42,251 nucleotides of DNA. It comes from Escherichia phage PhiR40_1. The stretch lies in the sequence record PV340560.1; one strand, 5' to 3'. Under the pieces are notes generated by a model. The model did not search any database and was not told where the DNA came from. It saw only the letters and a program-made list of their open reading frames with translations. Positions 140-1,233 of the stretch are shown here, in pieces. A program made the position numbers and the translations under genes. Each line of letters begins with the position of its first letter. Positions within the stretch are counted from its first letter, which is position 1.

Positions 140-168
140 TTGACCAAAAACAACCGCGGTTATAGACT
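140..168 (+). promoter_or_regulatory. Candidate sigma70 promoter for cargo operon (TTGACC-N17-TAGACT)
   Basis: Hexamers read directly; followed by dyad AATAGC-TAAG-GCTATT at 177-192 and SD GAGG before ATG 222. Confidence 0.3.
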
Positions 169-221
169 TTGCTCCAAATAGCTAAGGCTATTGCTTAGTA
201 AGTAAAACAGTTGAGGTTGCC

Positions 222-761
222 ATGAATCCGTTTAACGCCATTACTTTTGCTGCATTGTGCGGGCCTCTGGCTTGTCCTGCTGCTATGGCGCAGGAGTTCA
301 TCATCCAGCCAGCCCCTGTGATTGCTAAACCTTTTGAGTACTCTCCTTCTGTTGAGGAATTCTCACGCAAAATGGAAGAGGGTAAGGAGATCTTGCAAAA
401 GTTAACAATTGCAGCAGATGACTACTATATCTGTTTGATTGATCTTAATAGCCAAGATGCTCGCGAGTTTGTTTCCAAAAACGGGACAGATACGACAGAG
501 GCATGCGAAATGTTCCTGCGTGCTTTTGAAGAAGAAGTGAAGCGTACAATTGAATCGCCTCTGCCTGAATTTATCAGGTCAGAACTGAAGGTTTACTGGC
601 GTCATATTGCTAAAGCTCGCTCATCTGTCACTCGCCTTAACAATTACATAAAGAGCATATTTAAAGAAACTGTTACTTTTAGCGGGCGCGCGGATCTTGC
701 TGGAATTGCAGCACTAGCTAGTCACACATCAAATAAGCTAAAATCGATGCAATTTCACTAA
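222..761 (+). CDS. Hypothetical 179-aa protein with hydrophobic N-terminus; partner of YafO-like toxin
   Basis: ATG 222 with SD GAGG 5 nt upstream; 16 bp before next ORF; no family recognised. Confidence 0.6.
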   Translation: MNPFNAITFAALCGPLACPAAMAQEFIIQPAPVIAKPFEYSPSVEEFSRKMEEGKEILQKLTIAADDYYICLIDLNSQDAREFVSKNGTDTTEACEMFLRAFEEEVKRTIESPLPEFIRSELKVYWRHIAKARSSVTRLNNYIKSIFKETVTFSGRADLAGIAALASHTSNKLKSMQFH

Positions 762-777
762 CCGATAGCGGACGACC

Positions 778-1212
778 ATGCATCTAGAAGTCTCTATTAA
801 TCCAGAAACTAGAGCTGAATTTTTTGATGAAGTTTTTCTCAAATTCCCGGAGCTAGAGTCTTCTATCATTGATGATTTCAAGAGATACAAAGCAACCGGT
901 GAGCTTCCGCATTATTTCGGTAGGGACGTTGCGTATACTCAGCCTTATGGTGCTTTTCGGGCTGGGTTGATGCATATCCATCTTTGTCTACCGCCAAACA
1001 AGTTTCCCGAGAAACTTCCACAACCGGATAGGGTCTGCAAGAAAGGTGATCCTGATAATGATGCTTGTCTTGTGTATGTCCAAGGTGAGCTTTATGAGAA
1101 TAAATATTCACTCATTGCTATTATGTATCCCGATGCACATGAAAAAGCAAGAAAACATGATGTGATGAGCTATCTGGCGCGAATTGCCCAGAATTATAAA
1201 GATGAAAACTAA
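778..1212 (+). CDS. YafO-family (ribosome-dependent mRNA interferase) toxin-like protein
   Basis: Motifs DF..YK..G.LP..FGRD, HIHL, D..LVY.QG, LIAI..P..H..AR shared with E. coli YafO as recalled. Confidence 0.6.
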   Translation: MHLEVSINPETRAEFFDEVFLKFPELESSIIDDFKRYKATGELPHYFGRDVAYTQPYGAFRAGLMHIHLCLPPNKFPEKLPQPDRVCKKGDPDNDACLVYVQGELYENKYSLIAIMYPDAHEKARKHDVMSYLARIAQNYKDEN

Positions 1213-1233
1213 CCCGCCGAAGCGGGTTTTTTG
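1212..1233. terminator. Intrinsic terminator between convergent genes (ACCCGC-CGAA-GCGGGT + T6)
   Basis: Perfect 6-bp GC-rich stem, 4-nt loop, T-run. Confidence 0.6.

Follow-up and report, generated by a model that had tools for sequence, protein, structure and literature searches.

How is a toxin of the YafO family held in check when the gene beside it encodes no YafN-like antitoxin and the product of that gene appears to be exported? The locus that raises this question lies near the left end of a 42,251-nucleotide stretch of DNA recorded as Escherichia phage PhiR40_1 (PV340560.1; the whole stretch is called the window hereafter), which is a lambdoid prophage integrated in dusA and identical to phage PhiR55_1. 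Two co-directional open reading frames (ORFs) with an intergenic gap of 16 nt are present there, as a preliminary description made from the letters of the window had reported:

138-1233, plus strand: the whole mobile module (moron), with promoter, leader dyad, ORF1, ORF2 and terminator
222-761, plus strand: ORF1, 179 aa, ATG start
778-1212, plus strand: ORF2, 144 aa

This pair combines a known toxin family and a known toxin-antitoxin (TA)-like layout with a new, uncharacterised partner family, whose predicted location outside the cytoplasm is without described precedent among type II antitoxins. Positions 138-1233 are an autonomous, horizontally mobile two-gene prophage moron. The pair is probably, at modest confidence, a lysogen-expressed toxin-partner module, in which ORF2 would be the effector and ORF1 its controller or neutraliser, with exclusion, abortive infection and/or addiction as the benefit.

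Obligate pairing of ORF1 with YafO-family genes

In all 17 complete contexts, an ORF1-family gene is followed, at a distance of -4 to +21 nt, by a YafO_toxin gene encoding 144-147 aa. The contexts were reached either via ORF1 (four genomes, plus Providencia, Xenorhabdus, Serratia and Orbaceae) or via ORF2 (Photorhabdus, Gilliamella, Yersinia and Klebsiella), and the four metagenomic ones hold the remotest ORF1 relatives (profile E 4e-12 to 1.4e-4). The pairing persists down to about 15-20% ORF1 identity. ORF1 and ORF2 diverge in parallel (Spearman 0.78 across 66 pairs of loci), with ORF1 evolving much faster: identity to the window copy is 20-75% for ORF1 versus 52-81% for ORF2. The ORF1 family occurs only directly upstream of, and translationally linked to, YafO-family genes, and chance adjacency is excluded. 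A search for the pair in other genomes, which the preliminary description had proposed, has thus found an obligate unit in 17/17 contexts, and the opinion given there that the pairing is not canonical yafNO is upheld by this unit and by a partner that is not YafN-like.

ORF2 is a member of the YafO family

The YafO-like motif series noted earlier in ORF2 was borne out by profile search. ORF2 matches Pfam PF13957 (YafO_toxin) with 76.5 bits (gathering threshold 25, E 1.9e-21) over profile positions 1-100 of 101, and is 36% identical to K-12 YafO (from NC_000913; E 2e-19). Its score against the NCBIfam YafO equivalog PRK09885 lies below the cut-off (75.8 vs 153 bits), which makes ORF2 a member of the YafO family and not the orthologue of K-12 YafO. 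The fold is RelE-like (BECR), of the RelE/HigB type and within the RelE superfamily, and residues H66, H68, R85, Y100 and H121 are conserved and common with K-12 YafO. ORF2 is classified here as a putative mRNA endoribonuclease toxin.

ORF1 represents a small all-alpha family

ORF1 is a member of a small, formerly uncharacterised all-alpha family. It has no Pfam or NCBIfam match at E<=1 beyond noise, and neither a sequence nor a fold relative in the PDB; fold searches give generic helical bundles only. It does match phrog_8416, whose function is unannotated. The family comprises 22 clusters by single-sequence search and 41 by profile, and the profile has 46 matches (E <= 1e-3) in 1.84 billion representative proteins. 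Nearly all of the family proteins are 160-205 residues long, and none is annotated. In the AlphaFold2 model of ORF1 (predicted local distance difference test score, pLDDT, of 79, and 80-92 over residues 44-150), a detached N-terminal helix and a disordered linker precede an all-alpha bundle, with helices at residues 44-74, 77-87, 90-110, 116-146 and 159-174. The conservation of the family is centered on one segment:

600-746, plus strand: family-wide conserved C-terminal core, ORF1 R127-L175, AKARS..RLN..K.....F....DL.....LA.HT..KL

This core is the sole region that aligns in the remotest family members, and it may be the part that contacts ORF2. The last ~10 residues of ORF1 are not conserved between subfamilies.

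The preliminary description had held that ORF1 is not YafN/RelB/DinJ-like and is about twice the size of an antitoxin, and both statements stand: ORF1 has 179 aa vs 97 aa in YafN, and kinship to YafN, RelB or DinJ was rejected, with no Pfam or NCBIfam match, an E value of 1.7 in BLASTP against K-12 YafN and an hhalign probability of 0.5%. With a YafO match for ORF2 and no characterised family for ORF1, nothing that could be checked in the sequences speaks against that description. Residues 23-36 of ORF1 (window 288-329; AQEFIIQPAPVIAK) are 43% identical over 14 residues to K-12 YafN 20-33 (AKYFIDQPVAVLSN), a resemblance that is probably due to chance, the hhalign probability being only 0.5%.

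Predicted export of ORF1

ORF1 very probably carries a functional Sec signal peptide, which would place its helical domain outside the cytoplasm, either free or signal-anchored. The predicted peptide is as follows:

222-290, plus strand: predicted Sec signal peptide, residues 1-23 (MNPFNAITFAALCGPLACPAAMA, followed by QEF)

The N-terminus is tripartite, MNPFN-AITFAALCGPLACP-AAMA/QE (the slash marks the predicted cleavage site), with a hydrophobic core, Pro at -5 and Ala at -3 and -1. The same architecture is kept in all ORF1 subfamilies despite unrelated N-terminal sequences: MNLSLRSCLAGILFGGALTVPSFAA/E in Photorhabdus and Xenorhabdus, MANHSVINSAILAALFAFSSQA/DE in Gilliamella and Orbaceae, and MKTTLSICAAALSMALSSPNVLA/RE, MKKQMKNQSKASGALMASLLALAMGMTASTLATVQA/S and ...IAGVAHA/EV in remote members. 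Its presence in every subfamily in spite of this divergence indicates that the ORF1 partner is probably exported, and the K/R-rich n-regions of several subfamilies fix an N-in/C-out orientation. A crude heuristic test for signal peptides (a hydrophobic 9-mer, an uncharged run of >=14 residues and a small-x-small site) was passed by 67 of 78 ORF1-family members vs 0 of 38 ORF2-family controls, so that the hydrophobic signal-like start previously remarked in ORF1 is a family-wide feature. A second hydrophobic segment was found in none of the ORF1-family members tested.

Within the E. coli/Pantoea/Serratia subfamily, residues 1-32 (window 222-317) have an identity of 0.77 vs 0.52 in the rest of the protein, and four-fold degenerate sites differ at 0.47 vs 0.64. 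The pre-sequence and first mature residues (Q-x-F-I-x-Q-P-A-P), conserved as they are while four-fold sites vary, appear to be sequence-specific beyond targeting, and this conservation may reflect tuned export or a specific interaction. A DNA-level constraint behind it was mostly rejected, since four-fold sites still differ at 47%. Two further possibilities were rejected: that ORF1 is a lipoprotein (a lipobox is absent and Cys18 is not conserved), and that translation from an internal start yields a cytoplasmic form (M51 lacks conservation, and no Shine-Dalgarno sequence precedes M22).

A mobile unit with its own control elements

The two genes are bounded by the following elements:

140-168, plus strand: candidate sigma-70-type promoter TTGACC-N17-TAGACT, 9/12 consensus match
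177-192, plus strand: leader dyad AATAGC-TAAG-GCTATT
213-216, plus strand: Shine-Dalgarno sequence GAGG of ORF1; the same GAGGTTG stands in all of five loci, 5 nt ahead of the start codon
1211-1234 (stem 1211-1228), both strands: intrinsic terminator (AACCCGCCGAAGCGGGTT plus T-run), 7-bp stem with 5 GC pairs

The promoter, dyad and strong terminator of the preliminary description are all represented in this list. The promoter scan by itself is not above chance (2 sites vs 3.1 expected), and an alternative -10, TATAGA, lies at 161-166 within the candidate promoter. The -35 (TTGACC/TTGCTC) and -10 region are kept in five loci with otherwise unrelated upstream flanks; this cross-context homology, starting exactly at the -35, is much stronger evidence for a promoter than the scan.

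The leader dyad begins a few nt after the likely transcription start and occurs once in the window, where its chance is ~2e-4 per 130-nt leader. Five of 16 independent loci have it again, 42-48 nt ahead of the ORF1 start and in part with compensatory substitutions: ATAGC-N4-GCTAT is found in E. coli, Phytobacter and Gilliamella, and ATAAC-N4-GTTAT at the same position in Pantoea and Orbaceae, two distinct lineages in which the identical G-C to A-T compensatory change arose separately. Different dyads stand at this leader position in P. multigeneris, Enterobacter and Serratia. In a covariation analysis of six loci, 30/30 cells pair, 2/5 pairs are double-changed and 4/500 shuffles reach the score, figures to be read with caution because the set is small and was chosen by eye. 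The dyad could be a 5'-terminal RNA stem-loop (-5.8 kcal/mol here; -3.4 to -15 kcal/mol across loci) or, equally, a palindromic operator. G·U pairs in the Enterobacter and P. multigeneris dyads mildly favour the stem-loop. A recognisable DNA-binding domain is absent from both ORF1 and ORF2.

The terminator separates the convergent ORF2 and PrtN/xis-like gene, scores on the minus strand too and may serve the latter gene also. A sub-threshold match to the Rfam family isrK, an Hfq-binding small RNA, was observed at 1179-1232 on the plus strand (19.6 bits vs gathering 50, E 0.17); it overlaps the ORF2 3' end and the terminator hairpin and most likely reflects mere terminator similarity.

The pair occupies different sites in different hosts. 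In this window, as in Phytobacter, its neighbours are att and xis. Enterobacter, Serratia, Klebsiella, Yersinia and one metagenomic phage have it in the gap between tail-chaperone and tape-measure genes, Pantoea has it immediately behind the tape measure, and Photorhabdus has it amid baseplate genes. In two metagenomic prophages (L026, 2076-3950; L028, 1203-3144) it follows a CI-type repressor gene (HTH_3 + Peptidase_S24) directly and on the same strand. The latter arrangement corresponds to the lambda rexAB position and implies expression in the lysogen. In Orbaceae the pair lies at a non-phage chromosomal site. Nucleotide homology with Enterobacter L004, Pantoea L005 and L006 spans the -35 (window ~138) to the ORF2 stop codon, and the mobile unit is therefore composed of promoter, leader and two genes. 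Some phages related to this one have the neighbouring xis and exonuclease genes but not the ORF1-ORF2 pair. The module thus has the properties of a prophage moron: its own promoter and terminator, deviant GC content, patchy presence and several insertion sites. Its AT-richness, previously judged by eye, was computed as 42.8% GC vs 51.3% in the rest of the window, at the 4th percentile among same-size windows. The suggestion that the pair is moron cargo agrees with its different moron sites in unrelated prophages and with homology confined to promoter-through-stop.

Among 50,697 phage records, ORF1 was found in PhiR55_1 only, and the module is intact in 48 of 5,426 complete E. coli genomes. E. 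coli SX12 has, besides a chromosomal copy, a 99.7% identical module at 30167-31262 of a 55.6-kb plasmid-labelled record (NZ_CP142787.1); this record may represent a phage-plasmid or a phage genome in its excised, circular form. The tail-chaperone/tape-measure slot is a cargo hotspot in its own right (L013 1328-2176, L020 4349-5820, L022 4069-5704, L004 7048-7802, L005 7101-7439): it holds a ParD-ParE pair and an orphan ParD in Yersinia, Arc-like repressors with a P22_AR_N antirepressor in Serratia and a metagenome, and, in Enterobacter and Pantoea, small proteins predicted to be lipoproteins or secreted.

Setting in the prophage

The ends of the window and the neighbour of the module define its location in the prophage:

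1-19, left edge: native dusA 5' fragment
1239-1538, minus strand: PrtN-family gene, Pfam 84.8 bits, called excisionase in the related phage mEp460
40960-42057, minus strand: tyrosine integrase, Pfam Phage_integrase, 75 bits
42146-42250, plus strand: substitute dusA 5' end, phage-encoded, 71% identity to the native first 35 residues

The native dusA fragment at the edge places the module at the left junction, and the PrtN-family gene, with its excisionase label in mEp460, is the xis-like neighbour on the opposite strand; both had been described previously. The term attL, used for this side, denotes the left junction in window coordinates only, the integrase being at the opposite prophage end, and the module accordingly lies at the junction distal to the integrase. 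Its place on the circular phage genome is between attP and the PrtN-family gene. The phage-supplied dusA 5' end presumably restores the interrupted dusA. Beside the integrase, a gene for a DinI-like protein (40650-40898, minus strand; Pfam DinI, 70.9 bits) is likely to be further lysogenic-conversion cargo, an SOS/RecA modulator.

Names and previous reports

In K-12, yafM is an unrelated gene. In the PhiR55_1 record PV340571.1, the counterpart of ORF1 (206-745, equal to window 222-761) is named 'YafM antitoxin', and a Pectobacterium genomics paper repeats 'YafO/YafM' from annotation. The label was rejected, because it was traced to annotation pipelines and to a typo for yefM in one paper, and no experiments behind it were found. 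For PhiR55_1, a pipeline seems to have assigned the name from context, and database labels of this kind can now be corrected. In the literature that was accessible, searches for a YafO moron, PF13957 or an exported or periplasmic antitoxin returned nothing relevant, and no paper on the ORF1-ORF2 pair. PhiR55.1 is a cultured temperate phage from a recent defence study (10.1101/2025.11.03.685801). Its availability in culture makes the module experimentally accessible, and a 1.1-kb clone from PhiR55.1 (ECOR55) would allow direct testing.

Proposed mechanism and alternatives

A free RelE-family toxin cleaves mRNA and stops translation. Free ORF2 would likewise cleave mRNA, and the cell would therefore need a neutraliser, for which ORF1 is the only conserved candidate because no third gene, RNA repeats or Rfam element is present. 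A third conserved gene as the true antitoxin was excluded by the homology boundaries, the small flanking ORFs not being shared among loci, and an RNA antitoxin (type I or III) was rejected for want of tandem or convincing repeats and of an Rfam family. In the proposed toxin-partner module, ORF1 would be translated first from the shared mRNA and act as the cognate controller or neutraliser of ORF2, and ORF2 would be an mRNA endoribonuclease arresting translation. The phage would gain exclusion or abortive infection of competing phages, and/or prophage addiction.

That toxin control is coupled to export is a speculative addition, and a somewhat unlikely one. Newly made pre-ORF1 would hold ORF2 in the cytoplasm, probably via the core 127-175 or conserved residues 24-43; Sec export, and not Lon/Clp proteolysis, would continuously clear free neutraliser; and a stop in synthesis, caused by host shut-off by an infecting phage or by prophage loss, would free the toxin. 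As a whole, a toxin-partner module under export-coupled control is put forward as the best explanation, tentatively and as falling a little short of probable. To our knowledge, no described type II antitoxin is exported, and the described RelE-superfamily toxins, a group that ranks with the most thoroughly studied toxins of bacteria, are all held by a cytoplasmic, usually DNA-binding, protease-labile antitoxin. The latest survey names one membrane-associated case, itself a proposal (PMC11980606). It is doubtful that the pair is the first TA-like system with a Sec-exported obligate partner, in which export or envelope sensing would replace antitoxin proteolysis as the switch.

Several observations count against the best explanation. 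Mature exported ORF1 cannot bind a cytoplasmic RNase, which also strains the word 'immunity' for a protein predicted to be exported, and a folded pre-protein bound to toxin would be no Sec substrate, which leaves the export-coupled step mechanistically uncertain. The dyad resembles the operator of a type II TA system, but no DNA-binding domain is recognisable in ORF1 or ORF2. Moreover, in the E. coli/Pantoea/Serratia subfamily the signal peptide exceeds the mature domain in conservation, which is atypical for a mere export signal, and its n-region is without K/R. In PADLOC-DB v2, the module has no match, with none for ORF2 among the defence models and only a noise match for ORF1 (E 0.017).

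Some of these points would suit an ordinary cytoplasmic type II TA system, in which the ORF1 N-terminus is not an export signal but perhaps a toxin-binding or membrane-tethering helix, ORF1 stably binds ORF2, and both bind the ATAGC-N4-GCTAT operator and autoregulate. Type II TA systems typically have the antitoxin gene upstream, close spacing and co-diverging partners, as here; a palindrome lies between promoter and Shine-Dalgarno sequence, the N-terminus of one subfamily is under strong protein-level constraint with an n-region lacking positive charge, and the annotators of PhiR55_1 called ORF1 an antitoxin, a label without experimental basis. Of the marks of a canonical type II system, the upstream partner is present and a known antitoxin family, Phd/YefM or other, is not; with the signal-peptide architecture recurring in every subfamily, such a system is quite unlikely here. 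The recurrent slots of the pair bear instead on an envelope-sensing exclusion or abortive-infection system, also unlikely, in which periplasmic or signal-anchored ORF1 would meet phage tape-measure or ejection proteins and, with no classical neutralisation, ORF2 would be a latent cytoplasmic effector activated when ORF1 is perturbed, following a logic like that of RexA/RexB or the one proposed for ToxM-ToxR. ORF1 is predicted to be extracytoplasmic, and two of the slots in which the pair is found repeatedly, the tail-chaperone/tape-measure gap and the one behind cI, classically hold exclusion genes (HK97 gp15 and lambda rexAB). In addition, sensing of DNA passage has been proposed for a membrane-associated BECR toxin system (PMC11980606). 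Against this stands the topology: no membrane-spanning link joins ORF1 to ORF2, none at all if the signal is cleaved, and an uncleaved signal leaves only 5-25 poorly conserved residues in the cytoplasm. RelE-family toxins, besides, are normally constitutively active and need a neutraliser.

ORF1 could also be read as an export-monitoring leader which, like SecM, VemP or MifM, controls ORF2 translation in cis through its own translation and export status, so that ORF2 is made when Sec export is disturbed. An upstream ORF bearing a signal peptide, coupled at -4 to +21 nt, and a conserved region near the ORF1 C-terminus would agree with this. Nevertheless, a leader is highly improbable, given that the model predicts for ORF1 a helical bundle of 130 residues, well folded (pLDDT 80-92 over 44-150), and not a disposable peptide, that a stalled ribosome at gaps of -4 to +3 nt would block and not expose the ORF2 start, and that the final ~10 ORF1 residues differ between subfamilies. 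The absence of a known family or fold might finally suggest that ORF1 is not a real gene, or that two unrelated cargo genes merely travel together. This is effectively refuted by the 17/17 paired contexts over extreme divergence and many flanks, by co-divergence, and by the protein-level conservation of ORF1 with varying synonymous sites, its confident fold and the invariant Shine-Dalgarno sequence.

An entire YafO sub-branch that temperate phages have spread among Enterobacterales and Orbales goes strictly with an exported-looking partner. If the toxin-partner module under export-coupled control is true, a new mode of TA-toxin control would link envelope or export status to translation shut-down. 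Prophages would gain an export- or envelope-coupled trigger of abortive infection, and a new phage-borne exclusion module would be added to those in classical moron slots.

Comparison with known systems

K-12 YafN-YafO (dinB-yafN-yafO-yafP) has a toxin of the same Pfam family, PF13957, with 36% identity to ORF2 and the HIH, R, LVY.QG and P..H..AR motifs in common, and likewise a partner gene upstream across a short intergenic gap. The partners differ: ORF1 is not YafN- or Phd/YefM-like, has 179 vs 97 aa, is all-alpha and carries a Sec-type signal. The setting differs as well, a prophage moron with its own promoter here vs an SOS operon in K-12. PF_YafO is a small family (~1K members) with antitoxin-toxin gene order (Gerdes 2025, mBio; PMC11980606).

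With SecM, VemP and MifM, the pair shares an upstream ORF that bears a signal peptide and is translationally linked to the downstream gene. However, ORF1 forms a folded helical domain in which no arrest motif is recognised, and the intergenic geometry is unfit for unmasking a Shine-Dalgarno sequence. Lambda rexA-rexB and HK97 gp15, which are exclusion morons of prophages, are similar as lysogen-expressed cargo in the same slots, with one envelope and one cytoplasmic component. There is no kinship of sequence or fold; RexB spans the membrane several times as a polytopic protein, and its partner effector is no RNase.

Toxin-antitoxin-chaperone (TAC) systems, for example HigBA with a SecB-like chaperone, resemble the pair in that control of a RelE-superfamily toxin is wired to Sec export. 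The SecB link of TAC systems was reportedly described by Bordes and colleagues in 2011. TAC systems consist of three genes, and their cytoplasmic antitoxin depends on the chaperone, whereas only two genes and no SecB-like gene are present here, and the partner itself resembles a Sec substrate. Some TAC modules act in abortive infection (PMC11980606). ToxM-ToxR, whose BECR toxin has transmembrane and periplasmic parts, was proposed as the first membrane-associated type II TA system (PMC11980606). Both it and the present pair tie a RelE-superfamily toxin to an extracytoplasmic domain, and envelope sensing has been proposed for ToxM-ToxR. In that system the ToxM toxin itself has the transmembrane/periplasmic domain, and a ribbon-helix-helix/helix-turn-helix (RHH/HTH) antitoxin is encoded upstream, whereas here no RHH/HTH protein is present, ORF2 is a plain soluble monodomain protein, and the export signal is carried by the upstream partner.

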